Source of the DNA: an uncultured Gammaproteobacteria bacterium
GTDB taxonomy: Bacteria; Patescibacteriota; Microgenomatia; UBA12405
Direction of reading: 5' to 3'
NCBI GenBank assembly: GCA_964549165.1
Contig: CAZJUH010000002.1
Span: forward strand, 1,896 to 65,895
Length of the DNA: 64,000 nt
Shown in pieces: positions 5,033 to 58,629 of the stretch (position 1 is the stretch's first letter; each line of letters starts with the position of its first letter). The notes beneath the pieces were generated by a model that saw nothing but the letters and a program-made list of their open reading frames with translations, was not told the origin of the DNA and searched no databases. Made by a program: the position numbers and the translations under genes.

Positions 5033-5278
5033 ATGGATATCAATCAAATCGTCATCATCATTTCACTTTTGTCTATTTCCACCGTTGTTGTTATTGTCGG
5101 GATCTATCTCATTAAGTTAATAAAAGATCTAAGAGTAACAGTGGGTGAAACCAATAAAATCATTTCTTCAGTTTCTCAGCCTCTTTCTTCTTTTTCTGAA
5201 TTTTTAATGGGTTTCAGAAACGGTTTTTCTCTTTTTAATTCTTTTTTCAATAAAGACAAAAAAGAAAAAAATAATTAA
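5033..5278 (+). CDS. Small hypothetical membrane protein
   Basis: The N-terminal half has a single TM helix. No homology is recognisable. Confidence 0.3.
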   Translation: MDINQIVIIISLLSISTVVVIVGIYLIKLIKDLRVTVGETNKIISSVSQPLSSFSEFLMGFRNGFSLFNSFFNKDKKEKNN

Positions 5279-5311
5279 TTAATTTTTATTTGTTATTTAT
5301 TAATTATTCGA

Positions 5312-5331
5312 CTTTAGACTTTAGAATTTAA
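5312..5331. repeat. Short heptamer array (CTTTAGA x2 followed by ATTTAAT) upstream of ORF 5339
   Basis: Seen directly. Confidence 0.35.
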
Positions 5332-5338
5332 TAAATTT

Positions 5339-5701
5339 ATGTCTTGTTGTAATGATAAAGATTGCGATTGTCATCAACATAGTAGTTTTATTTTTGGTTT
5401 GATTATCGGCTTAGTTATCGCTGCTGTCGTTGCCATTGTTGTCTATAAAAATAACCGTGAAGTCGTCCTTTTAAAATTAAAAAAACAAATTGAAAAATTT
5501 ATTTCGGCCATAGGTCGATCTGCCTCTGGCGGAAAACCAAAATCAGAAGAAATTATCGAATCATTTATTACCCCTAATGTACCGAGAAAAAAAATTATCA
5601 AAAATATAAAGAAAGACGTTGTTATTCCTAAAAACCTAATTATTGCCGACACAACCCCGAAATCAATTTCCTCCAAGCCAAGGAAAATGTTTAAAAAATA
5701 A
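5339..5701 (+). CDS. Hypothetical membrane-anchored Lys-rich protein with a Cys/His-rich N-terminus. It contains a half-copy of the TCCGCC-NNN-GGCGGA element (5519-5533), which encodes RSASGG.
   Basis: TM helix plus the repeat-derived peptide. Confidence 0.35.
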   Translation: MSCCNDKDCDCHQHSSFIFGLIIGLVIAAVVAIVVYKNNREVVLLKLKKQIEKFISAIGRSASGGKPKSEEIIESFITPNVPRKKIIKNIKKDVVIPKNLIIADTTPKSISSKPRKMFKK

Positions 5702-9577: not shown

Positions 9578-10312
9578 ATGAGTTATCTTTATGTCAAAAG
9601 TCCGCCAAAGACTGTCAGGCGAAGAAGGGTTATTTCTTCCAGTCACAAAAAATATTTTGCCTCTTTTTTTCTTTTTTCGGGGATATTTTTATTTCTCTCC
9701 GCTATTTTACCCATTCTTCAGTTTCAGCTCGGTTATTCCACTAAATTTAATCAAATCCTAAACCCTTTATCACCTCAATTTTACAACCATCCTGGTTCAG
9801 TCCTTGGCGATGTAAATACTGATTACACCCAGCTTTCCAATTGGTTCGTCAATGATCCTGGGCAAAACATTTCTTCTCCTTTACCAAATTATTCTCTTTC
9901 TTCTTACTATGTTTCCATCCCAAAGCTAAAAATAAAAGAGGCGCAGGTTATTTTTGGTAGTACTGATTTAAAAAAAAGTTTAATTCATTATCCTAAAACG
10001 GCTCTCCCTGGTCAGTATGGTTCACCTGTAATATTTGGCCACTCGGTTTTACCTCAGTTTTTTAACCCCGAGTCTTATCTAACTATTTTTTCGACCCTTT
10101 ATAAACTAAAACAAGGCGATGAAATTTTTGTCAATTATGATCAAATTCAATATAAATATTTAGTTGAAGAAATGTTTGAAATTCAACCTACGGACCTTTC
10201 GGTCTTAGAGCAACGCTTTGATGGTCGTTACATTACTCTCATTACCTGTTCTCCCCCAGGGACTTATTTGCGTCGTTTAATTATAAAAGGTAGAATTGCT
10301 GACAACCTATGA
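9578..10312 (+). CDS. Sortase-family transpeptidase
   Basis: N-terminal TM anchor, catalytic His context (IFGHSV), the TLxTC motif (ITLITCSPP) and a conserved Arg (YLRRL). Confidence 0.7.
   Translation: MSYLYVKSPPKTVRRRRVISSSHKKYFASFFLFSGIFLFLSAILPILQFQLGYSTKFNQILNPLSPQFYNHPGSVLGDVNTDYTQLSNWFVNDPGQNISSPLPNYSLSSYYVSIPKLKIKEAQVIFGSTDLKKSLIHYPKTALPGQYGSPVIFGHSVLPQFFNPESYLTIFSTLYKLKQGDEIFVNYDQIQYKYLVEEMFEIQPTDLSVLEQRFDGRYITLITCSPPGTYLRRLIIKGRIADNL
9601..9624. repeat. Possible degenerate or deleted copy of the TCCGCC-AAA-GGCGGA element inside the sortase 5' end. It is read in a different frame from the other copies, giving SPPKTVRRR.
   Basis: Both outer arms match the family (TCCGCCAAAG...TCAGGCGAAG), but the central GCGGATCCGCC is replaced by ACTG. 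Confidence 0.3.
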
Positions 10313-11805: not shown

Positions 11806-12891
11806 CTATTTCTCTTTTTTATTTACGAGATCGTTCAATATATTCCAACGTCTTTTTTTCTCACTCATTGGTATTTCATCTTTAAATAGTTTTGCCGACA
11901 CGGTTCCCCTTCGGGGTGAATATTTGTTTAAATAGGTAATTTCAAAATCAACCTTTTTACATACATCAACCGTATTTTGAAACGCTTTTTTATCCTCGCC
12001 GGGAAAGCCAATAATAATATCGGTTGAAAATCTGACATCAGTCACTTTATCTTTAATTTTTTTGACTAAATCTAAATATTCTTTTTGGGTATAGCCACGG
12101 TTCATATTTTTTAGCACTGTATCATCGCCAGATTGAAAGGGGAGATGAAGAAGCCTATCAATATTATGGTATTTACCTATAATTTCTATTAATTCATCCG
12201 AAAAATCCCAGGGGTTACTACTGATAAAAGACACTTTTGTTAATTCTTTTTTCGCCACCTCTTCAAGCAACTTCGGGAAAGCGCTTTTAATTCTTTTTTT
12301 ACCCATTGAAGATTGAAGATTGCAGATTGAAGATTGATTTAAATCTGCCCCATACGAATTTACGTTTTGTCCGATGAGTACAACCTCCTTAAATCCTCTT
12401 TTAATTGCCCCATCAACTTCTTTTAAAATATCCTCAATTTTACGTGATATTTCCTTTCCCCTGGCATAGGGCACAATACAATAAGAACAGTAGTTGTTAC
12501 AGCCGCTACTAATAGTAATTAAAGCTGCTCTTTTTTTATCTCTGAGTGCCTCCACTTCAAAGCTTATCTTTTTAATTGGTAGCATTTCATCGACTCCCTT
12601 AATATTTTTTTTAGAAATCGGCACCAAGCATCCCGTCAAAATAATTCTTCGTCTCGCCGAAGCATTTGCGGAGGCGGATTCCGCTTTTCTTATCTTATCT
12701 ATTAGTCCATACACCCTATTCTCGGCTGATTCCCGAATGACACAGCTATTGATAACAATAAGGTTAGCTTCTTTCCAGTTTTCTACGAGCCGATATCCTT
12801 TGTCTTGATAATAAGTCTTTATTCTTTCCGAATCAGATTCGTTTTGAGCACAGCCAAATGTTTTTAGATATAGTTTATTTTTTCGTAGCAC
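11806..12891 (-). CDS. Radical-SAM methylthiotransferase of the MiaB/RimO family (no TRAM domain seen)
   Basis: N-terminal MTTase domain (TFGCAQNESDSE), radical-SAM CxxxCxxC (SSGCNNYCSYC). Confidence 0.8.
   Translation of the reverse strand: MLRKNKLYLKTFGCAQNESDSERIKTYYQDKGYRLVENWKEANLIVINSCVIRESAENRVYGLIDKIRKAESASANASARRRIILTGCLVPISKKNIKGVDEMLPIKKISFEVEALRDKKRAALITISSGCNNYCSYCIVPYARGKEISRKIEDILKEVDGAIKRGFKEVVLIGQNVNSYGADLNQSSICNLQSSMGKKRIKSAFPKLLEEVAKKELTKVSFISSNPWDFSDELIEIIGKYHNIDRLLHLPFQSGDDTVLKNMNRGYTQKEYLDLVKKIKDKVTDVRFSTDIIIGFPGEDKKAFQNTVDVCKKVDFEITYLNKYSPRRGTVSAKLFKDEIPMSEKKRRWNILNDLVNKKEK
12305..12338. repeat. GATTGAA-type heptamer array (x5) inserted in-frame in the MiaB-like gene. 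It encodes NQSSICNLQSS.
   Basis: Seen directly. A near-identical array occurs at 26955-26987 in an unrelated gene. Confidence 0.55.
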
Positions 12892-22520: not shown

Positions 22521-22553
22521 ATTTAGAATTTAGGCTTTAGGCTTTAGATTTTA
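22521..22553. repeat. Heptamer array TTTAGAATTTAGGCTTTAGGCTTTAGATTTT between rpsL and rpsG
   Basis: Seen directly. Nearly identical to 50971-51003. Confidence 0.5.
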
Positions 22554-26903: not shown

Positions 26904-28080
26904 CCCCTCTATCTTCCGGATAAATCATCGCAAAATTCGCCTGAATTACTTTATTGTTTGATTGAAGATTGGAGATTGAAGATTGATAATTAGTGGTCAC
27001 AATGTGCTGCGCGTATTTAAATTTAAAAACAAATTTTTCTTCAATTTCTTTTTCCTTAAACTCAGGAAAAATTTTTTTTAGATATCCAAAAAAATCTTTT
27101 TCAATCAAAGCATCTTTACAGGTAAAATATTTGTGATTTTGGGGTAAATATGTTCCCATGTAATAAATATTTTTATCGCCATAATTTTCTGTTCCAACTA
27201 AATTAGTGTGTTGAATAAAAGCCAGAAAAGGGGATTTGGTGTCGTTAATGTTGTGCCAATAAAATTTGCTTAAATTTTGTTTTGAAGAAAAAACTACCGT
27301 TACCGCTCCCAAATAACCAATATTTTCTATCGGCGCCGTACTAATAATTTTGTCATATTCTTTTTCTAATTTTCCAAAATCTAAAATCTCATTTCTCATC
27401 TCTATTCTTCCCCCCATCTTTTTGATTCTCTTTTCTAGTTCATCAATAATCAGTTGAAATCCACCATTCATATATCCCAAATATTCCCTTGCCACGCCAA
27501 AGCCTTTGGCGTCGGCGGGTTTTCCTTTCGAATTCCCCCTGGTATGAATTCTAGCCCACATCCAGGCCATTGAAATATCTTTATACCTATCACTAAATTT
27601 ACCTTTGAGCAGTGGCTCCCAGACAACTCGATAAGCTCTGTCTCCACACCATTTTTTCATCCATTTATAGGCTAAAACATTTTCAAATTTTTTCCAATTA
27701 TTTTTTTTTTCGAGATATATTTTGACCAGACCCAGTCGCAGTTTATCAATTAAACTGAGTGGCTTAAATTTCAATAAATCCATGGCTCCGGCAAAAGGAT
27801 ATACTTTCCCCTCGTAGTAAAGGGCCGTCTTACTCTCATACCATTTCAATTTATTTTCCAAGCCTAATTCTTTTATTAAGGCGATTATTTCTTTATCGCC
27901 TTTAAAAATATGATGATAGGCTTTTTCCAAATTAGTCCCCTCTATTTTAAATCCGCCTAAAAGTCCACCCAAATCCTCGCTCTTTTCAAATATAGTTACT
28001 TGATATTTTTTTTGTAATAGCCGATAAGCGGCTACAAGTCCAGTAATTCCTCCGCCCACCACTAATATTTTCGACTTCAT
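26842..28080 (-). CDS. FAD-dependent oxidoreductase (amine-oxidase / UDP-galactopyranose-mutase-like fold)
   Basis: N-terminal GGGITGL dinucleotide-binding motif. Its 3' end overlaps the rfbD 3' end by about 62 nt. Confidence 0.5.
   Translation of the reverse strand: MKSKILVVGGGITGLVAAYRLLQKKYQVTIFEKSEDLGGLLGGFKIEGTNLEKAYHHIFKGDKEIIALIKELGLENKLKWYESKTALYYEGKVYPFAGAMDLLKFKPLSLIDKLRLGLVKIYLEKKNNWKKFENVLAYKWMKKWCGDRAYRVVWEPLLKGKFSDRYKDISMAWMWARIHTRGNSKGKPADAKGFGVAREYLGYMNGGFQLIIDELEKRIKKMGGRIEMRNEILDFGKLEKEYDKIISTAPIENIGYLGAVTVVFSSKQNLSKFYWHNINDTKSPFLAFIQHTNLVGTENYGDKNIYYMGTYLPQNHKYFTCKDALIEKDFFGYLKKIFPEFKEKEIEEKFVFKFKYAQHIVTTNYQSSISNLQSNNKVIQANFAMIYPEDRGVNYAVREGEKAAVLILQNRK
26955..26987. repeat. 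GATTGAA-type heptamer array inserted in-frame in the FAD-oxidoreductase gene. It encodes NYQSSISNLQSNN.
   Basis: Seen directly. Paralogous to 12305-12338. Confidence 0.55.
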
Positions 28081-41336: not shown

Positions 41337-41735
41337 ATGAAAATTAATAATAATTTACTTACTCAAAGAGGACACAATCCTTACCTTCTTGAGTTAAGAG
41401 AATTATCGAGAGTAAATCGTCAAAATCCAACTAAAGCTGAATTATTAATTTGGAACACGATTTTACGGAAAAAATATTTAGGCTATAAATTTCTGAGACA
41501 AAAACCATTAAATCAATTTATTCTTGATTTTTATTGCTCAAAATTATTACTAGACATTGAAATTGATGGAGATTCCCATCTTAATCAAAAAAATCATGAC
41601 GATGGTCGGGACGAAATTTTATCTAGTCTCGGAATTAAAACTATTAGGTATAATAATGAAGCAGTATTAATGACCTTAAATACCGTTATAGAAGATTTAA
41701 AGGTTCAAATTAATAATCGACAGGATGAAATATAA
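41337..41735 (+). CDS. DUF559 / Vsr-like (restriction-endonuclease fold) endonuclease-domain protein, inserted between secY and adk
   Basis: Conserved DUF559 pattern: a Lys near the N-terminus, FLRQKP...F.LDFYC..L..D.EIDG..H, and a C-terminal IRY.N. Confidence 0.7.
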   Translation: MKINNNLLTQRGHNPYLLELRELSRVNRQNPTKAELLIWNTILRKKYLGYKFLRQKPLNQFILDFYCSKLLLDIEIDGDSHLNQKNHDDGRDEILSSLGIKTIRYNNEAVLMTLNTVIEDLKVQINNRQDEI

Positions 41736-43195: not shown

Positions 43196-43666
43196 ATGGC
43201 AACCACAAAAACAAATACCACTCCTGTCGTTACCGCTCCTGTCTCTGCCAAAGGCGGATCCGCCTCAGGCGGAAAAAAAACTAAATCTCTTCCCAAGGCT
43301 AAAAAAGTTGTTAAAAGTCTGGCCGAAGGTCGACTTTACATTCAGTCAACCTTCAACAATACTATCGTCACTATTACCGATATTAAGGGCAATACTCTCG
43401 CCTGGTCAAGTGCTGGTCAGTGTGGCTTTAAGGGTTCTCGTAAATCGACTCCCTATGCCGCCACCACTGCTATCGAAAAGGCTCTTGAGGCTGTCAGACC
43501 AATTGGAATTAAAAAATTAGCAGTTTATCTAAAAGGACCAGGTACCGGCCGAGATGCCGCTCTTCGTTTTCTTCGCGCCAAGCGAGATTTTGAAGTCGAT
43601 CTCATTGCCGATGTCACCCCCATTCCTCACAACGGCCCCAGGCCTCCAAAGGCCCGCCGAGTTTAA
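43196..43666 (+). CDS. rpsK: 30S ribosomal protein S11, with an N-terminal extension that carries a repeat-element insertion
   Basis: S11 core from [14 protein letters not shown] onwards. The extension contains [10 protein letters not shown]. Confidence 0.9.
43247..43273. repeat. TCCGCC-NNN-GGCGGA double-hairpin element centred on GGATCC, inserted in-frame in rpsK (encodes AKGGSASGG)
   Basis: Seen directly. Near-identical copies at 45640-45666 and 51003-51032, with a half-copy at 5519-5533. Confidence 0.65.
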
Positions 43667-43677
43667 AAAAAATTACC

Positions 43678-44307
43678 ATGAGAAGTACACTTGATACTAA
43701 ATGTCGACTTTGCCGTAGTGAAGGCGTAAAACTTTATTTAAAAGGCGCTCGTTGTTTTTCTCCTAAATGTCCCCTTGAAAAGAAAGGAGCTGTCAGGCCT
43801 GGAATGCACGGTACCAAAAGAAGTCGAAAGCCCACCGATTATGGGATTCAACTAAGAGCCAAACAAAAAGCTAAGCGTTTTTATGGAATTGCCGAGACTC
43901 AGTTCAAAAATTATTACACCGCCGCCAAAAAATTAAAAGGTTTGGTCGGTGAAAATTTATTAATTCTTATCGAAAGAAGACTGGACAATGTTATTTATCT
44001 ATCTGGTCTCTGTTTATCCAGAAGTCACGCCAAGCAGTTAATCAGTCATAAAGATGTTTTTGTAAATGGTAAAGTTTTAAATATTTCTTCTTATTTAGTA
44101 AAAGTAGGGGATGTCATTACTTTAAAAGCAAAAAATCTTAAAAAAAATGGCGAAACTTATAAATACGCCGATAAGGACTTTAAGGCTCCGCAGTGGATTG
44201 ATTTAGACAAATCCAAATCCAGCGCCAAAATCATTGCCCTTCCCATCATCGATCAGAATCATAACGGGATCGATGTAAATTTAATTATTGAATATTATTC
44301 AAGATAA
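43678..44307 (+). CDS. rpsD: 30S ribosomal protein S4 (Zn-binding N-terminus)
   Basis: CRLCRSEGVKL...CFSPKC. Confidence 0.95.
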   Translation: MRSTLDTKCRLCRSEGVKLYLKGARCFSPKCPLEKKGAVRPGMHGTKRSRKPTDYGIQLRAKQKAKRFYGIAETQFKNYYTAAKKLKGLVGENLLILIERRLDNVIYLSGLCLSRSHAKQLISHKDVFVNGKVLNISSYLVKVGDVITLKAKNLKKNGETYKYADKDFKAPQWIDLDKSKSSAKIIALPIIDQNHNGIDVNLIIEYYSR

Positions 44308-44322
44308 CAAAAGGAGAAAACT

Positions 44323-45243
44323 ATGATCGATACTAGTCGCTTTCATATTAAAACCATTAAACAAACTTCCACTTATGGCAAGTTTGAGCTTACTCCACTT
44401 GTTGGAGGTTTAGGTCACACCCTCGGTAATAGTCTTCGTCGAATTCTTTTAATCACTATTCCCGGTGCGGCAATCACTCACATTAAAATCGATGGTGCCA
44501 CTCATTTATTTACCACTTTACCTGGGGTAAAAGAAGATCTCGTCGAAATTTCGCTCAATCTAAAAAAGATTAAATTTGCCTATGCCAAGGAAGAACCTAC
44601 GATATTAATTTTAGACAAAAAAGGCAAGGGTATTGTTACTGCCGCTGATATTGCTGATAGCTCTGTCTGTAAGGTTTCTAATCCAGATCAGGTCATCGCT
44701 ACTCTAACCGACACCAAAGCCCACCTTAAAATTGAAATGACGGTTGAGCGTGGGGTTGGCTATTCTCTGGCTCGTGAACAAAAAACTGATATTGTTGGTG
44801 AAATTATCCTCGATGCCACCTTTACTCCCGTTTTAAAAGCCAATTATACTGTTGAGCCCACTCGTCTTGGTAAAAAGAGCAATTACGATAAATTAACCAT
44901 GGAGATTTGGACCGATGCTTCAATTGAGCCTCTCACTGCCCTAAAAATGGCCGCCAAAGATTTAATTAATGCCCTTGACCAGATTGTTGATACTCGTGAA
45001 TTCGAAGACGAAGTCATCACCCTCGACTCTATGCCCATCAACCAAATGGCTGAAATCTCAGTTGAAGAAATTGAATTACCTCTTCGGGTGACCAACGCCC
45101 TCAAAAAAGCTGATTATTCGACCATTAACGATTTAGTTAAGGCCGGTAGAGCCGATGTCAGTAAAGCCAAAAACGTCGGTGAAAAATCATTAAGAATTAT
45201 TGATGCCTGGCTTGAGGAAAAGGGCTTTTCCTGGAATAAATAA
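44323..45243 (+). CDS. rpoA: DNA-directed RNA polymerase alpha subunit
   Basis: N-terminal domain plus C-terminal domain. Confidence 0.95.
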   Translation: MIDTSRFHIKTIKQTSTYGKFELTPLVGGLGHTLGNSLRRILLITIPGAAITHIKIDGATHLFTTLPGVKEDLVEISLNLKKIKFAYAKEEPTILILDKKGKGIVTAADIADSSVCKVSNPDQVIATLTDTKAHLKIEMTVERGVGYSLAREQKTDIVGEIILDATFTPVLKANYTVEPTRLGKKSNYDKLTMEIWTDASIEPLTALKMAAKDLINALDQIVDTREFEDEVITLDSMPINQMAEISVEEIELPLRVTNALKKADYSTINDLVKAGRADVSKAKNVGEKSLRIIDAWLEEKGFSWNK

Positions 45244-45244
45244 G

Positions 45245-45727
45245 ATGAGACATCGAATTGCAGGCTATCATTTAGGTCGGACCATTAATCAAAGAAAAAA
45301 TCTGTATAGATCTCAGCTGCGCTCTTTGTTTACTTACGGTTTTATCAATACGACCGTTACCAAAGCCAAATCTATCCTGCCTCTGGCAGAAAAAATTGCC
45401 CTCGCCGCCGTCAAGGCCGACCTAAATTCTCGTCGCTATATTTTTACCTTTTTTCAAGATCGAAATATCGTAAATAGGATAGTAACAGCTTTTTCTACTA
45501 CTTTTCCCGGCCAGACTCAAAACTTTACTCAGTTAAAAAATGTAAAATTCCGGCAAGGGGATAATGCTTTAATTGTTCGATTAAGTTTTATCAAAGAGGT
45601 AAATAGTCTCCCCGTCATTAAAGAAAAAGAAAAAAAATCCGCCAAAGGCGGATCCGCCTCAGGCGGAGAAGTTAAAAAGAAAGTTCCTGCCAAGAAAGCA
45701 GTCGCAAAGAAGGAGACTAAAAAATGA
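45245..45727 (+). CDS. rplQ: 50S ribosomal protein L17, with a Lys-rich C-terminal extension of about 40 aa that carries the repeat element
   Basis: L17 core from MRHRIAGYHLGRT. The tail reads [17 protein letters not shown]. Confidence 0.9.
   Translation: MRHRIAGYHLGRTINQRKNLYRSQLRSLFTYGFINTTVTKAKSILPLAEKIALAAVKADLNSRRYIFTFFQDRNIVNRIVTAFSTTFPGQTQNFTQLKNVKFRQGDNALIVRLSFIKEVNSLPVIKEKEKKSAKGGSASGGEVKKKVPAKKAVAKKETKK
45640..45666. repeat. TCCGCC-NNN-GGCGGA double-hairpin element inserted in-frame in the rplQ 3' extension
   Basis: Seen directly. GCCAAAGGCGGATCCGCCTCAGGCGGA is identical to the rpsK copy. Confidence 0.65.
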
Positions 45728-46146
45728 AAGCTAAAACAACAGTTTTAAAAGGAAGCAATCCTGTTCGATTATGGATATTAGTTGACTTATCGGGTAAAAC
45801 TCTAGGTCGAGTCGCCACTGAAATTGCAGCCTTATTAATGGGCAAAAATAAAGCGACCTTCTCTTATCATCGTGATGATGGTGACTATGTCGTGGCCATC
45901 AACGCTAAAGATATTGTCGTTACTGGCAAAAAATTAAAACAAAAAATTTATTATCATCACACTGCTTATACCGGCAATTTAAACGAGTTATCTCTAAAAG
46001 ATCTTTTAAAGAAAGACCCGAGGAAAGTAATCGAATTTGCTGTTTACGGTATGCTTCCCAAAAATCATCTTCGGGCCAAAAGAATGCGTCGTTTAAAAAT
46101 ATTTATTAACGCCGAGCATAAATATGCTGAAAAATTAGGTAAATAA
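45724..46146 (+). CDS. rplM: 50S ribosomal protein L13
   Basis: Canonical L13. Confidence 0.95.
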   Translation: MKAKTTVLKGSNPVRLWILVDLSGKTLGRVATEIAALLMGKNKATFSYHRDDGDYVVAINAKDIVVTGKKLKQKIYYHHTAYTGNLNELSLKDLLKKDPRKVIEFAVYGMLPKNHLRAKRMRRLKIFINAEHKYAEKLGK

Positions 46147-46149
46147 AAT

Positions 46150-46566
46150 ATGGCTACTTCTAAAACATCAAAAAAAAACTTAACCACTTATGTCTATGCT
46201 CTCGGCAGACGCAAAGCTGCCGTGGCGACTCTAAAATTATTTAAAGGTAAGGGTGAATCAAGTATCAACTCTCGTCCTTTAAATAAATATTTTCCTCTCA
46301 CTTTCTCTCGTTTAGATTTACCCTTTGTTACCACTGAGACTCTAAATAAATACTACTTTAGCGCTAAAATTGTTGGTGGAGGCAAAACTGGCCAGCTCGC
46401 TGCTTTAATTTTAGCTATTTCTCGCGCCCTCAAAAAAAGTAATCCTGATATGACTTTAGCCTTAGCCCAGGCTAATTTACTGACAGTCGATGCCCGTGTT
46501 CGCGAACGCCGCATGGTTGGTACCGGTGGCAAAGCGAGACGCCAAAAGCAATCTCCAAAGCGTTAA
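46150..46566 (+). CDS. rpsI: 30S ribosomal protein S9
   Basis: Canonical S9 with a C-terminal ...RRQKQSPKR. Confidence 0.95.
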   Translation: MATSKTSKKNLTTYVYALGRRKAAVATLKLFKGKGESSINSRPLNKYFPLTFSRLDLPFVTTETLNKYYFSAKIVGGGKTGQLAALILAISRALKKSNPDMTLALAQANLLTVDARVRERRMVGTGGKARRQKQSPKR

Positions 46567-46585
46567 GCTAGTGGTAAAATAAAAA

Positions 46586-48304
46586 GTGGCCGAAAAACGT
46601 TCTAATAGTAATCTTAAGTTGTTTGTATTAGCCAAGCCTTATACTGGCCTTATTCTTCTGGTTCTGGCGGTCACTTTTACCTCTAATGGCTTAAATCTGA
46701 TACTTCCAAAGCTTGTTGCCCAAACTATCGACGTTTTTCGATCAAATAATTCTCTTCCCGTCACTTTTATTAGAAATTTTTCCTTGATTATTGTTTTTAT
46801 TTTTGTTTTTTCTTCTCTTCAAAGTATTTTACAAACCTATTTGTCAGAAAAATTTGCCCGTGATTTAAGGGAAAAATTAATTAATAAAATTTCTAATCAA
46901 CCCTATCTATTTATTCATCAGTTTACTCCAGAAAAATTGCTAACTAATTTAATCGCTGATGTCGACAATATAAAGCTGGTTATTTCTCAGGCCTTAATTC
47001 AGGTTTTTGCTTCCATCATTATCATTATTGGGGCCACTTATTTGTTAATTTCTATTAATTGGAAATTAGCTTTGATTGTTCTATCAATTATTCCCTTTAT
47101 TGTGGTTATCTTCATTCTTATTTTTCACAAAATCAGAAAATATTTCCTCCGCTCCCAGTCCATTATCGATAAGCTCAACCAAGTTATTAACGAAAGTATT
47201 ATTGCTTCCTCTTTAATTCGGATTATTAATTCTCAACAATGGGAATTCTTAAAATTTAGCGCTGTCAGCCAGGAAGCCCGGCAAGTTGGTCTGTCGATTT
47301 TAAAATTATTTTCCAGTTTAGTCCCACTTATTAGCCTGATTGCCAACGCCAGTATCGTGGCTATTTTATTAATTGGCGGCAAATCCATAGTTTTGGGGAC
47401 CTTCACTATTGGTTCTTTCACCGCTTTTATGAGTTACATCTCAATGCTTATCTTTCCAATCGTAGTTTTGGGTTTTATTAGTAATTTGATTGCTCGGGCT
47501 GCCGTTTCTTTTGAACGAATTAATCAGGTTTTAGAAGCTCCGGTTGAAAAAATTTATGGCGATATCGAGACCGAAATTAAAGGAAATATTGTTTTTAAGA
47601 ATGTAAATTTAATCCTAAATAATAAACAAATTCTTAAAAACGTTTCATTTAATCTCAAAGCCAATCGTAAAACGGCCATTCTTGGACCTACTGCCGCTGG
47701 TAAAACCCAGATTTTTTATCTGATTGCCGGTTTAATAAAACCGAGTTCCGGTCAAATTTTAATTGATAATGTCCCTCTTTTTGACTATTCCCAAAATTGC
47801 TTAAGCAGTCAGATTGGTTTGGTTTTTCAGGATTCTTCCATCTTTAATGCTACTATTTTGGAAAATATTAATTTTAAGAATAAAAACGATCCTAGTGCTG
47901 TTAATAAAGCCATTGAGACCGCAGAGCTTAAAAATTTTATTGAGACTCTACCCCATGGTTTAAATACTAAAATTGCTGAAAGGGGCAACAATTTATCCGG
48001 TGGTCAAAAACAAAGAATTACTTTAGCTCGGGCTTTGGTTCTTAATCCCAAGATTTTGTTATTGGACGATTTTACTGCCAGGGTTGACAAAGATACCGAA
48101 AAAAGGATTATTGCTAATTTAGACAAAAATTATTCCGAAACCACCGAAGTGATTATCACTCAGCAAATTTCTTCTGCCCTGGATGCCGATCAAATAATTT
48201 TAGTCATGGAAGGAGAGATTTTGGCGGTGGGCACTCATGCTTCTCTTCTGAAAAAATCTCCTGAATACAGACAAATTTATAATTCACAGCAGGATTTGAC
48301 ATGA
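46586..48304 (+). CDS. ABC transporter permease/ATPase (type I exporter, MsbA-like), subunit 1, with a GTG start
   Basis: Six TM segments plus an NBD (Walker A GPTAAGKT, signature LSGGQKQR). Confidence 0.85.
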   Translation: MAEKRSNSNLKLFVLAKPYTGLILLVLAVTFTSNGLNLILPKLVAQTIDVFRSNNSLPVTFIRNFSLIIVFIFVFSSLQSILQTYLSEKFARDLREKLINKISNQPYLFIHQFTPEKLLTNLIADVDNIKLVISQALIQVFASIIIIIGATYLLISINWKLALIVLSIIPFIVVIFILIFHKIRKYFLRSQSIIDKLNQVINESIIASSLIRIINSQQWEFLKFSAVSQEARQVGLSILKLFSSLVPLISLIANASIVAILLIGGKSIVLGTFTIGSFTAFMSYISMLIFPIVVLGFISNLIARAAVSFERINQVLEAPVEKIYGDIETEIKGNIVFKNVNLILNNKQILKNVSFNLKANRKTAILGPTAAGKTQIFYLIAGLIKPSSGQILIDNVPLFDYSQNCLSSQIGLVFQDSSIFNATILENINFKNKNDPSAVNKAIETAELKNFIETLPHGLNTKIAERGNNLSGGQKQRITLARALVLNPKILLLDDFTARVDKDTEKRIIANLDKNYSETTEVIITQQISSALDADQIILVMEGEILAVGTHASLLKKSPEYRQIYNSQQDLT

Positions 48305-50067
48305 CCAACTACACCTTAAAATTTTTTGATAAAGACACTCGGGAAAAACTTCATTTTTGGAGATTAGCCCGTCAATTTTGGCACATTTTAAAGGATGAAA
48401 AATCAAAATTAATTATTGCCACCATTTCCATCGCTGTTAATTCTGCGGCCAGCATTGCCGCTCCTTTTATTTTGGGTTATACCATTGACCATTTTATCAT
48501 CCAAAAAAATTTAAATGGCCTCACTAATTTTTCCTTAATTTTGGCCGGAATCTATTTAATCACTTTTGCGACTAATTTTATTCAGGTTCGCACCATGGGT
48601 ACTTTAGGCCAAAATATCTTATTTAAGCTCAGAAATTCCCTTTTTTCCAAAATTCAAAGCTTGCCTTTAAAATTTTTCAATCAAAATAAACTTGGTGATT
48701 TAATTTCTCGGATCAACAACGACACTGATAAATTAAATCAATTCTTTTCTCAACAATTAAACCAGTTTGTCGGCAATATTTTTACTCTTATTGGTATTGG
48801 TATCTTTATTTTCTTTATCAACTACCGTCTGGCTATGGTGACTTTATCCGCTGCTATTTTTTTGTTTATTATTACTTCAATTATTTCTCCCTGGATTGCC
48901 CGGCGCAATCGACTCAGTTTACAAAGTTTGGGTGGTCTTTCCGCCGAAGTTTCCGAAAGTCTTAATTATTTTAAAGTTATTGTCTCTTTTAACCGCCGTG
49001 ATTATTTTCGGGAAAATTTTAATCATTCCAACACTGAAAATTTTCAGATGTCCTTTCGTTCCGGTATTGCTAACAATTTAATGGGCCCCATCTATGACTT
49101 CTCTGGCAATTTGGCTACTTTATTAGTTTTACTTTATGGAATTTTTTTGATCACTCAAGGCCAACTGACAATCGGTATTTTAATTTCTTTCTTAAGTTAT
49201 ACCGATCGTTTTTATGGACCACTTCGTCAAATGGCCTCTCTTTGGGCCGGAGTTCAAACCGCCCTGGCAGCTTGGAACCGGATTTTTGAAATTCAGCACT
49301 TGAAATCGGACATGGAAATTTTACCCGAATCTAAGGAAAAAGATACCAAATCAATGATGCACTTTGAAAATGTAGTGTTTGGTTACGACGAAGAAAACCC
49401 GGTTCTGAAGAAAGTTAATTTCAATTTTCTAGAAGGCAAAACTTACGCCATTGTCGGTCCTACCGGCGGTGGTAAAAGTACCATTGCTTCGCTCATGTCT
49501 CGGCTCTACGATCCCCAAAAGGGTACCGTTTATCTCAACGATTGTGATATCCGTACTTATCAGCCCAAAGATTTATCCCAAAAAATTGGCTTTATCTTAC
49601 AGGAACAATATTTATTTACCGGTACGGTCGGGGAGAATATTGTTTACGGCAATCTGGAATTCAAAAAATATTCTAAAAAGAAACTGGAAAAATTATTAAG
49701 TGAATTAAATTTAGATTCTTTAATTAATAAATTCGAAGACGGCCTTGACACTAAAATTGTTTATAACAGTGAAAGCATTAGTCTAGGTCAAAAACAACTG
49801 ATTTCTTTTATCCGGGCTATCATCCGCCGGCCAGAATTATTAATTATGGATGAAGCTACCGCTAATATTGATACTGTTACCGAGGGCTTGTTGCAAACAA
49901 TTATTAATAAATTACCAAAAAATACCACTAAGGTTATTATTGCTCATCGTTTAAATACCATCAAAAATGCCGACGAAATCTACTTTGTTAACAATGGCCA
50001 GGTTGTCACGGCTCAGTCTCTTGAACATTCAGTCGAGATGATTACCAAAAGCAATAAGAACTCTTAA
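48301..50067 (+). CDS. ABC transporter permease/ATPase (type I exporter), subunit 2. Likely a heterodimer partner.
   Basis: Six TM segments plus an NBD (GPTGGGKST). The signature motif is degenerate (ISLGQKQL), which suggests an asymmetric heterodimer. Confidence 0.85.
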   Translation: MTNYTLKFFDKDTREKLHFWRLARQFWHILKDEKSKLIIATISIAVNSAASIAAPFILGYTIDHFIIQKNLNGLTNFSLILAGIYLITFATNFIQVRTMGTLGQNILFKLRNSLFSKIQSLPLKFFNQNKLGDLISRINNDTDKLNQFFSQQLNQFVGNIFTLIGIGIFIFFINYRLAMVTLSAAIFLFIITSIISPWIARRNRLSLQSLGGLSAEVSESLNYFKVIVSFNRRDYFRENFNHSNTENFQMSFRSGIANNLMGPIYDFSGNLATLLVLLYGIFLITQGQLTIGILISFLSYTDRFYGPLRQMASLWAGVQTALAAWNRIFEIQHLKSDMEILPESKEKDTKSMMHFENVVFGYDEENPVLKKVNFNFLEGKTYAIVGPTGGGKSTIASLMSRLYDPQKGTVYLNDCDIRTYQPKDLSQKIGFILQEQYLFTGTVGENIVYGNLEFKKYSKKKLEKLLSELNLDSLINKFEDGLDTKIVYNSESISLGQKQLISFIRAIIRRPELLIMDEATANIDTVTEGLLQTIINKLPKNTTKVIIAHRLNTIKNADEIYFVNNGQVVTAQSLEHSVEMITKSNKNS

Positions 50068-50082
50068 GAGTTAAAATAATTA

Positions 50083-50811
50083 ATGTCTTTAATCCAATCT
50101 TTAATTCTCGCTTTTGTTCAGGGTCTTACCGAATTTTTGCCTATTTCTTCTGATGGACACTTAAATTTAGTTCAATATCTTTTTGGTTTTTCCCCTTCTC
50201 TTACTTTTGATATTTATCTTCATCTTGCTACCTTTTTTTCAGTTATTTTTTTCTTCAGAAAAAGACTCTCATATTTTTTCTCAAATATAAAATATATTTT
50301 TATTGGTTCAATTCCAGTCATAGTTACTGGTTTTTTTTTAAAAGATTACATAACAACTATTTTTATTAATCCTAAACTTCTTCCTTTTTTCTTTTTAATC
50401 ACCGCCCTCTATACCCTCTTTACAAAATTTATTAAAAAACAAGATAAAAAAATCACCTATTTATCAGCCTTAATTATTGGTATATTTCAAGCTCTTGCTC
50501 TTCTCCCGGGAGTATCTCGAAGTGGGGGAACTATCTTTTCCGCCCTTCTTTTAGGTCTTTCGCCAATTAATGCTTTTAATTTTTCTTTTTCATTATTTAT
50601 TCCTGCCACATTTGGGGCAATTTTACTCGAAATAAAAAATATCTTATCTCTAAATATCCTAACCTTAAACAATCTTGTGGCTTTTATTGTTACCTTTTTA
50701 GTTGGACTACTTGCTTTAAACTTTCTTGAAAAAGCACTTACTAGCAACAGATTTTGGTTTTTCGGTATTTACACCCTAATTTTATCTCTGACTTTGTTTT
50801 TTGTTCTTTAG
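50083..50811 (+). CDS. uppP: Undecaprenyl-diphosphatase (BacA/UppP)
   Basis: GLTEFLPISSDGHL and PGVSRSG motifs. Confidence 0.85.
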   Translation: MSLIQSLILAFVQGLTEFLPISSDGHLNLVQYLFGFSPSLTFDIYLHLATFFSVIFFFRKRLSYFFSNIKYIFIGSIPVIVTGFFLKDYITTIFINPKLLPFFFLITALYTLFTKFIKKQDKKITYLSALIIGIFQALALLPGVSRSGGTIFSALLLGLSPINAFNFSFSLFIPATFGAILLEIKNILSLNILTLNNLVAFIVTFLVGLLALNFLEKALTSNRFWFFGIYTLILSLTLFFVL

Positions 50812-50963
50812 GCCTCGGCAATTTTGCCCGTAATCTGAATTTCTTTAAATTTTTTAATACTCTTGATTGTTTTTCTTAAAGCTTTAAAGCGCGCCTCAAA
50901 ATTTATTACCTCAACATAAAATTCCGACACTACCAAAAGCTCTTTATTTTTATTTTTCATATT

Positions 50964-51003
50964 TTTTAGGTTTTAGAATTTAGGCTTTAGGTTTTAGATT
51001 TTT
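50964..51003. repeat. Heptamer array TTTTAGGTTTTAGAATTTAGGCTTTAGGTTTTAGATTTTTCC, abutting the GGATCC palindrome
   Basis: Seen directly. Confidence 0.5.
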
Positions 51004-51659
51004 CCGCCAGAGGCGGATCCGCCTTTGGCTGAAGATTTTTTTTCAATTAGTTGTTTTCCAAAGCTAACGCAAAGCTGTTCGAGATCTAAAAGATGAAAAC
51101 CTTTTTTAGAAATCGCCCTTTCCATCGCCTCATTAACTTTTGTAGGTTCTTTGCAGTTAATATGCTCCGCATCGACTTCTGGATTTACGGTTTTAATCAG
51201 TTCTACCGGTATCAAAGCGATACTAGGGACACCCTTTGGAGTCGATTTTGTTTTTGTCCCCTTTGGAGTCGTCGGGCTACTTTGACCTGTCGTCAGAGAA
51301 TAGAGGTGGTTATTGGCCACGATTACGGTAATATCGATATTTAATCTGGCCGCGGCTATTAAATGACTAAGTCCTTCGCCATAAATTCCCCCGTCTCCAC
51401 CAATGGCAATTACATTTAACTCGGGATTAGCTAGTTTTATTCCCACCGCTGTCGGGATACATCGACCATGGAGGGAATGAACCCCCCAAGCCTTTACAAA
51501 ATCAGCCATATTACCGATACAGCCAATATCATAGACAATTACCGTCTTGTCTTGATCTAAATTCATTTTTGCCAAAGTATTTTGAAGTCCTGCGTAAATA
51601 ACATAATCTTCACATCCCGGACACCAGGTGGGGATAACCCCTGATCGCCAATTAGTCAT
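50994..51659 (-). CDS. korB: 2-oxoacid:ferredoxin oxidoreductase beta subunit (TPP-binding)
   Basis: CPGCGD-like motif (WCPGCED) and the TPP-binding GDGG block. Confidence 0.8.
   Translation of the reverse strand: MTNWRSGVIPTWCPGCEDYVIYAGLQNTLAKMNLDQDKTVIVYDIGCIGNMADFVKAWGVHSLHGRCIPTAVGIKLANPELNVIAIGGDGGIYGEGLSHLIAAARLNIDITVIVANNHLYSLTTGQSSPTTPKGTKTKSTPKGVPSIALIPVELIKTVNPEVDAEHINCKEPTKVNEAMERAISKKGFHLLDLEQLCVSFGKQLIEKKSSAKGGSASGGKI
51003..51032. repeat. TCCGCC-NNN-GGCGGA double-hairpin element at the 3' end of korB (minus strand). It is read in the same codon frame as the other copies and encodes [12 protein letters not shown].
   Basis: Seen directly. Its reverse complement differs by 1 nt from the rpsK/rplQ copies. 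Confidence 0.65.
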
Positions 51660-57981: not shown

Positions 57982-58629
57982 TTACTGCTTAAGATCTGAT
58001 ACTTCTTTGGGGGTTAAATGTCTTGATTCCCCGGGAGTTAAATCTCCGATTTTCAAATTTCCAATTCTAATTCTTTTTAACCTCTTGACTCTTAGTCCGG
58101 CCTCCCAGCACATTTCTCTGATTTGTCTTTTTTTACCTTCAAACATAATTATATTTATTTTATTTTTTTCGATTCTCGCAATTTTATTAATGCCAAGTTT
58201 AATTTTATTATTTTTTATTTCTCTGTCGAGGACTACTTCATATTCTTTTTCTAAGTGAAATTTTGGATGTGTCAATTTTAAAGCCAGATCACCATCATTA
58301 GTTAGCAGCGTTAAACCTTCTGAGTCTTTATCGAGTCTTCCTACTGGATACAATCTATTTTTACTTTTTATAAGATCAATTACTTTTTGTCGTCCTCTTT
58401 CATCACTTACTGTTGATACTATTCCGACCGGTTTATAAAGCATAATATATTCCTTATTCTCGCGGGATATTATCTCAAGACCGTCAAGTGATATTTTTTC
58501 TTTTCCCTGTATTTTGTCACCCAAATTAGCTATAGTTTCGTTAATTTTAATCCTTCCCTCTTCAATTAATTTATCCGATCCTCTTCGAGAAGCGATTCCC
58601 GCCTCGGCCAAAAATTTATTTAAACGCAT
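57982..58629 (-). CDS. Pseudouridine synthase (RsuA/RluB family) with an N-terminal S4 domain
   Basis: MRLNKFLAEAGIASRR and the catalytic VGRLDKDSEGL. Confidence 0.85.
   Translation of the reverse strand: MRLNKFLAEAGIASRRGSDKLIEEGRIKINETIANLGDKIQGKEKISLDGLEIISRENKEYIMLYKPVGIVSTVSDERGRQKVIDLIKSKNRLYPVGRLDKDSEGLTLLTNDGDLALKLTHPKFHLEKEYEVVLDREIKNNKIKLGINKIARIEKNKINIIMFEGKKRQIREMCWEAGLRVKRLKRIRIGNLKIGDLTPGESRHLTPKEVSDLKQ

Follow-up and report, generated by a model that had tools for sequence, protein, structure and literature searches.

The stretch of DNA analysed here, 64,000 nt of contig CAZJUH010000002.1 (positions 1,896 to 65,895; the whole stretch is called the window below), carries several copies of a very small repeat made of two abutting hairpins. 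It is built from 15-nt mini-hairpins, each with a stem of 6 bp (TCCGCC/GGCGGA) and a loop of 3 nt. Two of these usually form an inverted dimer of 30 nt, in which the first loop is RRA and the second TYY, read on either strand. We consider it likely that the copies belong to a widespread family of non-autonomous, proliferating double-hairpin repeats, of the kind represented by REP sequences (repetitive extragenic palindromes) and the Rickettsia palindromic elements (RPEs), and that copies lying in genes are translated and filtered to a benign frame. An earlier note on this DNA had proposed a selfish palindromic repeat that tolerates in-frame insertion and forms a family distinct from the RPEs, and our results support this proposal.

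Copies in the window and in related genomes

When the window was scanned with the unit pattern TCCGCC-NNN-GGCGGA, allowing up to one mismatch, seven matches were obtained, whereas shuffles preserving dinucleotides give an expectation of 0.05. The full 30-nt element (TCCGCC-NNN-GGCGGA followed by TCCGCC-NNN-GGCGGA), used in a fuzzy search, led to four places, three of which hold intact copies. Copy 1 (43244-43273, plus strand; TCTGCC AAA GGCGGA TCCGCC TCA GGCGGA) forms codons 17-26 of the gene for ribosomal protein S11 (43196-43666), in the part encoding the N-terminal tail; its single stem mismatch makes a T:G wobble in the sense strand. Copy 2 (45638-45667, plus strand) is perfect, TCCGCC AAA GGCGGA TCCGCC TCA GGCGGA, and encodes residues 132-141 of ribosomal protein L17 (gene 45245-45727), within its Lys-rich C-terminal tail. 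Copy 3 (51003-51032, minus strand; TCAGCC AAA GGCGGA TCCGCC TCT GGCGGA on the gene strand, with one stem mismatch) supplies residues 209-218 of a KorB-like protein, the beta subunit of a 2-oxoacid:ferredoxin oxidoreductase (gene 50994-51659), where it stands within a 16-aa C-terminal extension, among the last 13 residues. These are the three near-identical copies reported in the earlier note, which had placed them close to these positions but let copy 1 begin at 43247, 3 nt too late. The fourth, diverged copy (5504-5533, plus strand; TCGGCC ATA GGTCGA TCTGCC TCT GGCGGA) had been taken for a half-copy at 5519-5533. It is in fact complete, encodes SAIGRSASGG in a small membrane-anchored open reading frame (ORF; 5339-5701) and retains both hairpins, one pair being compensatory and two being G:T wobbles. 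The deviations of copies 1 and 4 from the stem are G:U-compatible on the sense strand.

The S11, L17 and KorB-like copies all translate to the same ten-residue peptide, (S)AKGGSASGG, as had been noticed before, and all three are found at a protein terminus. S11 can be aligned to solved structures from residues 33-40 onwards, and copy 1 precedes this conserved fold; the conserved core of L17 comprises residues 1 to about 116 and the conserved domain of the KorB-like protein ends near residue 201, copies 2 and 3 lying beyond these limits. The window copies occupy protein sites that are tolerant of extra residues, namely the N-terminal tail of S11, the C-terminal tail of L17, the read-through region of KorB and a linker in a membrane protein, and are probably without any function for the host. 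The window has a G+C content of about 37%, and the GC-rich codons TCC, GCC, GGC and GGA are therefore atypical of the host. As a separate observation, the KorB-like subunit (50994-51659) has 221 aa, compared with 205 aa in relatives and about 270-310 aa in solved homologues; it ends shortly after the region aligned to the latter and is thus without their C-terminal part.

It might be thought significant that the three copies are read in the same codon frame although the KorB-like copy is inverted on the chromosome. This agreement is uninformative. Since the unit TCC GCC nnn GGC GGA equals its reverse complement, S-A-x-G-G is read from both strands and the frame agreement of the KorB-like copy is automatic; only the loop sequences tell the two orientations apart. 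The observation that five of the six frames are open is correct, but it does not follow that orientation is not forced by stop codons. Read from the other strand without change of frame, the S11 and L17 copies have a TGA in the first loop, and the orientation of these two copies is therefore forced.

Its S11 homologues place the organism of the window in Candidatus Shapirobacteria (Microgenomates/Patescibacteria). The copies are identical in a Logan assembly of the same sample (run SRR13007705; L121). Alignment of the S11, L17 and KorB-like orthologues revealed close relatives without the insert. None of the three intact copies is present in L122, a contig of a related species that is syntenic with the window and 85% identical to it in nucleotides over 19 kb: its S11 is shorter by 12 residues and has no insert, its L17 ends in an unrelated Lys-rich tail, and its KorB-like protein ends ...FGKQLK*, in agreement with relatives generally (...FGKQLK* or R*). 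The L17 copy is missing also from the tail of a more distant relative (L124). For the KorB-like gene the DNA alignment shows how the difference may have arisen. Copy 3 is located in the A-rich 3' spacer past the ancestral korB stop, which is TAA in relatives and GAA in the window, so that the ORF reads through the element to the next stop. To judge from this alignment, the KorB-like copy is an intergenic copy captured by loss of the stop codon, and the description of all three copies as in-frame insertions into genes does not apply to it.

In the S11 tail of L124 a decayed copy was found, TCCGCCAAAAGCGGATCCACCTCTGGTGTC, and another relative (L125) has TCCACC-AAA-GGTGGA TCCGCC-TCT-GGTGGA, that is one compensated pair and a G:T wobble. 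Intact, half (single-unit) or decayed copies were seen in only a few of the 120 closest S11 homologues, a sporadic occurrence which fits repeated gain and decay. The orthologue of copy 4 in L128 reads TCGACC ATA GGTCGA TCCGCC TTT GGCGGA, with all pairs Watson-Crick, and a further relative (L130) has 9 unrelated nt at this position; L128 in turn has an intergenic copy at a site that is empty in the window. Uncompensated decayed copies are known from L124, L024, L050 and L052, and decayed peptides such as SAKSGSTSGV occur in orthologues. At the S11, L17 and KorB-like sites the alignments gave no relative that encodes the same peptide in divergent DNA without a palindrome. We regard these three copies as typical, recent and probably neutral members of the family.

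Two apparent cases were discarded. The sequence TCCGCCAAAG-ACTGT-CAGGCGAA at 9601-9624 in the sortase gene had been suggested to be a copy with a deletion, but three related genomes have the same N-terminus KSPPKTxRxK, encoding MSYLYVKSPPKT.R.K... by divergent DNA without a palindrome, and it is an ordinary conserved sequence. Nor can the L17 copy be called a clean 30-nt insertion, since a relative has another 30-nt stretch 12 nt downstream and the alignment of the Lys-rich tails is ambiguous.

Distribution, structure and reading frame of the family

Searches beyond the window yielded very many further copies. One genome per GTDB species was scanned with the pattern GCC-NNN-GGCGGATCCGCC-NNN-GGC, which leaves the outer TCC and GGA free, and metagenome contigs were scanned with the full pattern as an independent replicate sample. 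Each scan matched at least 120 loci, and two sets of loci, about 1 Mb from the genome scan and about 0.8 Mb from the metagenomes, were analysed. Among the genome-scan matches listed, nearly every one carries the whole 30-mer even though its outer trinucleotides were not demanded; about 15, in loci of more than 60% G+C and without the outer arms (L004, L008, L030, L053 and others), are chance palindromes. According to the record titles these matches include about 53 loci of Patescibacteria, which represent more than 15 named classes, 10 from Omnitrophota, about 12 from phyla of the Planctomycetes-Verrucomicrobia-Chlamydiae (PVC) group (Kiritimatiellae, Lentisphaerae, Planctomycetes and Verrucomicrobia) and four from Ignavibacteria/Bacteroidota, together with Chloroflexota/Dehalococcoidia of about 70% G+C, Firestonebacteria and unclassified metagenome-assembled genomes (MAGs). 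The codons TCC GCC ... GGC GGA are identical across loci of 33-70% G+C. The element is thus common to many phyla and not a curiosity of one genome of the candidate phyla radiation (CPR), and we infer that it has spread horizontally. Phages were rejected as the main carrier, since only two matches were found in the 2.9 million viral contigs of IMG/VR.

As far as can be told from Rfam and the searchable literature, the family has not been described before. Rfam 15 gave no relevant family for the window region and three further loci. Literature searches with the peptide (GGSASGG, GGSAFGG and others), with the DNA core GGCGGATCCGCC, for palindromic or in-frame repeats in CPR bacteria and for REP sequences or REP-associated tyrosine transposases (RAYTs) in Patescibacteria returned only cloning primers, synthetic linkers and unrelated papers.

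In both samples the consensus is tTy-TCCGCC-RRA-GGCGGA-TCCGCC-TYY-GGCGGA-rAa, a dyad-symmetric sequence of about 36 nt in which the left T-Y and right R-A flank preferences are statistically independent. The predicted RNA folds of the element are stable (-15 to -21 kcal/mol; z = -3.1 to -4.4), and ViennaRNA favoured one long hairpin over the two local ones. Covariation points the other way. In 73 distinct copies the two-hairpin model has 8 pairs and 13 cells in which both sides are changed, a result reached by none of 500 shuffles, whereas the double changes fit the single long hairpin no better than they do in shuffles, and the latter structure was rejected. A scan based on structure only, for two adjacent perfect hairpins with 6-bp stems and 3-nt loops of any sequence, found 110 double hairpins in the genome set and 134 in the metagenome set, and none in shuffles. 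In the non-canonical ones it is mainly one hairpin that varies, with both arms changed, giving stems such as TCCACC/GGTGGA, TCAGCC/GGCTGA, CCCGCC/GGCGGG, CCCTCC/GGAGGG, CTCGCC/GGCGAG and TCCTCC/GGAGGA. Among unascertained near-canonical metagenome copies compensation is complete in four of the five with two stem changes and in both of those with four, while random double hits are expected to restore pairing in about 1%. The differences between window copy 4 and its L128 orthologue likewise consist of wobble and compensated pairs. Diverged copies keep both hairpins through compensatory changes.

The same architecture was encountered with other stems. One contig (L212) has four copies of TCTCCC-TTC-GGGAGA TCTCCC-GCA-GGGAGA (at 645, 1710, 4781 and 7013), and L079 has CCACCC-TAC-GGGTGG CCACCC-GTA-GGGTGG at 755. 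This suggests that the TCCGCC family belongs to a wider class of repeats with two 6-bp stems and 3-nt loops. Single 15-nt units occur in frame as SAKGG in adenylosuccinate synthetase (PurA; L014, 4339-4353) and in a small Lys-rich protein (L102, 6366-6380), and as SARGG in another S11 tail (P0054). It is therefore not only the 30-nt dimer but also the 15-nt hairpin alone that can persist in genes. Intergenic elements fused to another hairpin-forming repeat (…GTCATTCCGAGCG…TTCGCTCAGGGCAGGC… / CTGCCCTGAGCGAAGTCGAAGGGC) were seen in L007 (4569-4752 and 6390-6572) and L006 (328-400 and 542-600); these mosaic repeat blocks are duplicated 1.8 kb apart in a Kiritimatiellae MAG.

Most copies are located inside ORFs, and there they are nearly confined to one frame. 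Of the 62 copies classified as coding in the genome sample, 57 are in the frame reading SAxGGSAxGG (57 of 61 after correction of one S11 copy that had been misassigned to an overlapping spurious ORF), and in the metagenome sample 59 of 65, counting copies at least 20 codons inside open stretches of at least 200 codons. Intergenic copies are not so confined, and copies in other phases (e.g. PPxADPPxAE) lie, with few exceptions, in open stretches that are short or immediately upstream of long ORFs. A single ten-residue version of SAxGGSAxGG is the commonest in both samples. The constant (S)AKGGSASGG of the window does not extend to other genomes, where the first loop codon specifies K, E, G, R or Q and the second S, F, L or Y. 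Relative to the gene the loops are oriented such that Lys/Glu and Ser are favoured over Phe/Leu (27:12, p=0.02). From these patterns of frame and orientation we infer that the element is translated in genes and filtered to a benign frame, with selection removing insertions that give bulky or highly charged peptides.

The location at a protein terminus is likewise a property of the window proteins. Along the proteins of the samples the first tenth is enriched and the copies are otherwise spread out, and many inserts lie within domain envelopes, also in essential enzymes. Hosts confirmed by Pfam are the beta subunit of ATP synthase (AtpD; N-terminal barrel), valyl-tRNA synthetase (ValRS), DnaJ (G/F region), UvrB, Mfd, adenylosuccinate synthetase (PurA; one single unit SAKGG and one double), the beta subunit of phenylalanyl-tRNA synthetase (PheT; two copies) and aspartyl- and cysteinyl-tRNA synthetases (AspRS and CysRS), in which the copies are inside the catalytic domains. 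Unusual domain insertions were noticed in two aminoacyl-tRNA synthetases: the ValRS of one Patescibacteria MAG (L038, 4843-7080) has an embedded histidine-phosphatase (His_Phos_1) domain and the PheRS beta subunit of another (L020, 4441-6930) an embedded NlpC/P60 domain. Three Ignavibacteria proteins (L036, 6021; L051, 390; L087, 2838) have an intact copy at the same loop, …vqF-SAKGGSAxGG-nadklasGvYFYrl, in a domain which, from its resemblance, we take to be a C-terminal sorting domain of the type IX secretion system (T9SS); Pfam did not confirm this. The Ignavibacteria copies represent either a hotspot or long-term maintenance.

Outside genes no preferred context was apparent. Of the intergenic copies 17 lie between co-directional, three between divergent and none between convergent genes, as in the background, and a bias towards 3' ends or convergent gaps was therefore rejected. 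A role as DNA uptake sequence was discarded as well; such sequences occur at about one copy per kb in one competent family, whereas the present element has four copies in the 64 kb of the window and is shared by many phyla.

Association with heptamer arrays

Copies are flanked by direct repeats of 7 nt, with up to one mismatch, more often than expected (9 versus 0.8 in the genome set and 11 versus 0.9 in the replicate), whereas for repeats of 6, 8 or 9 nt the excess is much smaller or nil. Such repeats could be mistaken for a 7-bp target-site duplication. However, the copies concerned sit within or at the edge of heptamer tandem arrays, where identical flanking heptamers are automatic, and a gain of 30 + 7 = 37 nt would break reading frames. 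They are therefore no evidence of a target-site duplication.

The arrays themselves are frequent. Among arrays of three or more units, period 7 accounts for 132 in the genome set, as against 33 for period 6 and 27 for period 8, and the corresponding numbers for the metagenome set are 117, 22 and 28. With overlaps merged, period-7 arrays are eight times denser in loci bearing the unit (126 in 820 kb) than in a phylogenetically unmatched control of loci without it (3 in 158 kb). Five arrays in the genome set and six in the metagenome set abut a copy, about 0.1 being expected in the former by a rough calculation.

Period 7 also dominates the tandem repeats of the window. Arrays of the AGATTTT/TTTAGAn and GAAGATT types are found at 1904-1932, 2221-2252, 5272-5330, 12305-12337, 22521-22553, 26960-26986, 50964-51002 and 58198-58220, mostly in intergenic spacers. 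The array at 50964-51002 (TTTTAGG/AGATTTT type, 5.6 units) abuts copy 3, and one AGATTTT unit follows the element; at the same spot the element-free relative L122 has a shorter array. Array length varies between close relatives in this lineage. In the spacer upstream of ORF 5339, L128 has an array and an element, the window an array only, and L129 and L130 neither. An AACTGAT array is present in L117.

Heptamer repeats shared patchily among phyla have been reported before and are unexplained (PMC4679880, PMC4692102). The arrays resemble the short tandemly repeated repetitive (STRR) sequences of cyanobacteria and the TAACTGA repeats of Beggiatoaceae (PMC4679880) in being intergenic 7-nt arrays with a patchy distribution across distant phyla and no known mechanism; unlike the present element those repeats are tandem arrays and not hairpins. 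The link between the double-hairpin element and heptamer arrays is new, but it is an association only and unproven.

Synteny with relatives revealed two further differences in gene content. The ribosomal protein cluster has, between secY and adk, a DUF559 gene (Vsr/restriction-endonuclease-like; 41337-41735), which is missing at this position in L122 and L124 and resembles a small mobile insertion. Two neighbouring genes for ABC transporters (ATPase/permease fusions; 46586-50067) lie between rpsI and a BacA-like gene, and both are missing in L122, in which rpsI is followed by a short ORF and then BacA.

Relationship to known repeats and origin of the element

The RPEs, like the element described here, are palindromic, non-autonomous and without known mobilising activity, and they are inserted in frame in functional ORFs, including housekeeping genes, where they are translated as an extra surface peptide. 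They are about 100-150 bp long and to our knowledge confined to Rickettsia. The present element has 30 nt (with a 15-nt unit), encodes the same class of peptide on both strands and occurs in Ca. Shapirobacteria and many other phyla; its sequence appears to be unrelated to theirs. The fungal mitochondrial double-hairpin elements (DHEs), GC clusters and 'byp' elements are likewise GC-rich double hairpins of very small size that move in AT-rich, gene-dense genomes and can lie in coding regions. They are the closest in form, and differ in being organellar rather than bacterial. Since byp elements are skipped by the ribosome, their frame is irrelevant, whereas the near-exclusive occupancy of frame 0 in our samples argues for translation. 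Translational bypassing of the gene 60 or byp type accordingly appears improbable for the present element, judging from the roughly 90% of in-gene copies that are in one benign frame without stops.

Miniature inverted-repeat transposable elements (MITEs) are also non-autonomous and bounded by terminal inverted repeats; the TCCGCC...GGCGGA ends of the present element are perfect and the whole element is one inverted repeat. MITEs carry a defined target-site duplication produced by a DDE transposase, whereas no clear duplication was found at the copies studied here. Their length is 70-300 bp, with terminal inverted repeats of 15-30 bp (PMC3733652), compared with 30 nt in our case. REP sequences and their doublets (REPINs) come nearer in size. 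They are GC-rich imperfect palindromes of 20-40 nt, often arranged as inverted doublets, that form within-genome populations with G:T pairs and compensatory variation in the stems. Their hallmark is a GTAG or CGTC tetranucleotide at one end, and some copies, a minority, lie inside ORFs (PMC3733652). By contrast, our element has neither tetranucleotide, its flank consensus being tTy ... rAa; its units abut with zero spacer, most copies are inside genes, and there is no RAYT in the 64-kb window and no recurrent gene near the at least 120 loci. REPIN-RAYT systems are described as vertically inherited and lineage-specific, whereas the stems found here are identical in Patescibacteria, Omnitrophota, PVC bacteria, Ignavibacteria and Chloroflexota.

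How, then, does the element proliferate? Copying within genomes is indicated by the loops: identical loop pairs were found in 8 of 20 same-genome comparisons but in 4.9% of those between genomes (p ~3e-6; the pairs are not fully independent and one lies inside a larger duplication). Nothing in the surroundings of the copies looks like its mobiliser. An all-against-all BLASTP comparison of 2,287 ORFs from the loci showed no gene family recurring beside copies, Pfam scans of 20 window ORFs showed no transposase, and neither the window nor the neighbourhood of copies contained a RAYT. The element is accordingly non-autonomous. An autonomous element bounded by single units was looked for in the genome-scan loci and the window alone (about 1 Mb) and not found, near-canonical single units being all either decayed doubles or in-frame singles.

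The element would thus encode nothing for its own spread and would depend on mobilisation in trans, for which an enzyme recognising the folded hairpins is the most plausible agent. An HUH/Y1-type enzyme, as with REP and REPIN sequences, is one candidate. In this way it would multiply within genomes and may have moved between very distant bacterial lineages, as its distribution, its presence and absence among relatives and the similarity of copies within genomes suggest. Because 30 nt correspond to 10 codons, an insertion would keep the downstream frame, and in one of the three phases it would read Ser-Ala-x-Gly-Gly twice on either strand. Landings inside genes in this phase would be translated as a small flexible linker and survive, and those in the other phases would be found almost only outside genes.

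Several observations weigh against a mobile repeat of this kind. Neither a mobilising enzyme, nor an empty and filled allele pair in one population, nor an excision junction was found among the loci studied, and mobility is therefore argued from presence/absence and within-genome similarity. The 7-nt flanking repeats, being explained by the period-7 arrays, give no support to a target-site duplication. The stems are invariant across phyla, unlike those of the lineage-specific REP/REPIN systems. The tails that contain the S11, L17 and ORF 5339 sites are of low complexity, evolve fast and have other indels, and insertion boundaries in them are not cleanly definable. Intact copies are present at the same loop of the putative T9SS C-terminal domains in three divergent Ignavibacteria, with flanks that have clearly diverged in protein sequence; together with the compensated orthologous copy this could mean that host-level selection keeps the hairpins. 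On the other hand, template switching at quasipalindromes can perfect hairpins without selection, and compensation could stem from this process, which would weaken the inference of a selected structure.

The last two points lead to the explanation that the host itself selects the double hairpin, which would act in cis in mRNA or single-stranded DNA by protecting transcripts, pausing ribosomes or polymerases, or binding a conserved protein, and would be retained at any location, genes included. Compensatory changes that keep both hairpins, an orthologous coding copy whose pairing is kept in two species via wobble or compensated states, the stability of the predicted RNA folds, the invariant stems and the Ignavibacteria copies all agree with it. 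Even so we think it unlikely. The element is sporadic in close orthologues, being absent as three intact copies from L122 and as an insert from most S11 homologues; decayed copies exist in four loci; the hosts are unrelated genes with the copy at unrelated positions; there is no bias to 3' ends or convergent gaps and no Rfam match. An intrinsic terminator was rejected, for A-rich runs and not T-runs follow the hairpin on both strands (T-rich sequence precedes it) and most copies are inside ORFs. The G:U-compatible deviations of copies 1 and 4 might be cited in favour of an RNA structure, but sense-strand wobbles are confounded with synonymous third-position transitions, all of which create them, and the asymmetry of G:U and A:C pairs was dropped as a test between RNA and DNA.

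If instead the protein were the level of selection, SAxGGSAxGG would be a linker, tag or modification site and the palindrome its by-product. The same peptide in three window proteins, one predominant ten-residue version across the samples and the loop orientation bias to Lys/Ser, which shows selection at the protein level, could be taken in this sense. The explanation is nevertheless extremely improbable, because the codons TCC GCC / GGC GGA are fixed even at 33-40% G+C, where synonymous drift is expected, copies are found also in intergenic DNA and in other frames, in orthologues the motif is missing or the peptide decayed (SAKSGSTSGV, for example), and compensatory changes alter the peptide (STKGG, PSGGG, LAKGE) while pairing is kept. 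Palindromes might also arise in place, repeatedly, by template switching or slippage within tracts rich in A/T, and they would converge because no other GC-rich palindrome encodes small residues. The correction of quasipalindromes is established as a mutational process, the stem codons are a benign Ser/Ala/Gly set, and the same architecture exists with the stems of L212 and L079. That 30 specific bases were produced de novo hundreds of times is implausible, however, and the sharing of loops within genomes and presence or absence of the whole element point to copying from a template; we judge such an origin very unlikely. An artefact of assembly or sequencing, or chance matches, can be given next to no weight. 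Chance palindromes do make up a minority of matches, those above 60% G+C without outer arms, but the identical sequence in the separate Logan assembly means that the window copies are no assembly artefact, MAGs from many studies carry copies, the copies are in frame in real genes, and shuffles yield no double hairpins.

A mobile, translated double-hairpin repeat thus remains the reading we favour. A more far-reaching version of it would be a horizontally travelling, 'coding-compatible' selfish element, with stems formed by a GC-rich palindrome that reads Ser-Ala-x-Gly-Gly on both strands, which colonises the coding-dense genomes of CPR bacteria and many other phyla and donates flexible linkers and tails to their proteins, including ribosomal ones. 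It may also be tied mechanistically to the heptamer arrays, these being either the sites where it prefers to land or a product of the enzyme that mobilises it. We put this forward tentatively and regard it, taken as a whole, as rather doubtful. If true, the tie between element and arrays would give a handle on a puzzle that dates from the cyanobacterial STRR repeats, and their co-occurrence is in any case a testable lead on an old unexplained class of repeats.

Genomes of CPR bacteria (Patescibacteria) are small and gene-dense and are considered poor in repeats. An element of 30 nt which persists because it can be translated shows in what way selfish DNA can survive in such streamlined genomes. 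Its inserts of 5 or 10 Gly/Ser/Ala residues in ribosomal proteins, aminoacyl-tRNA synthetases, ATP synthase and UvrB affect alignments, phylogenetic markers, structure prediction and annotation, and the element can be used as a marker for strain-level presence/absence typing in metagenomes. Finally, identical stems in Patescibacteria, Omnitrophota, Planctomycetota, Ignavibacteriota and Chloroflexota imply either that environmental bacteria of different phyla exchange a mobilising system or a universal host activity on mini-hairpins.

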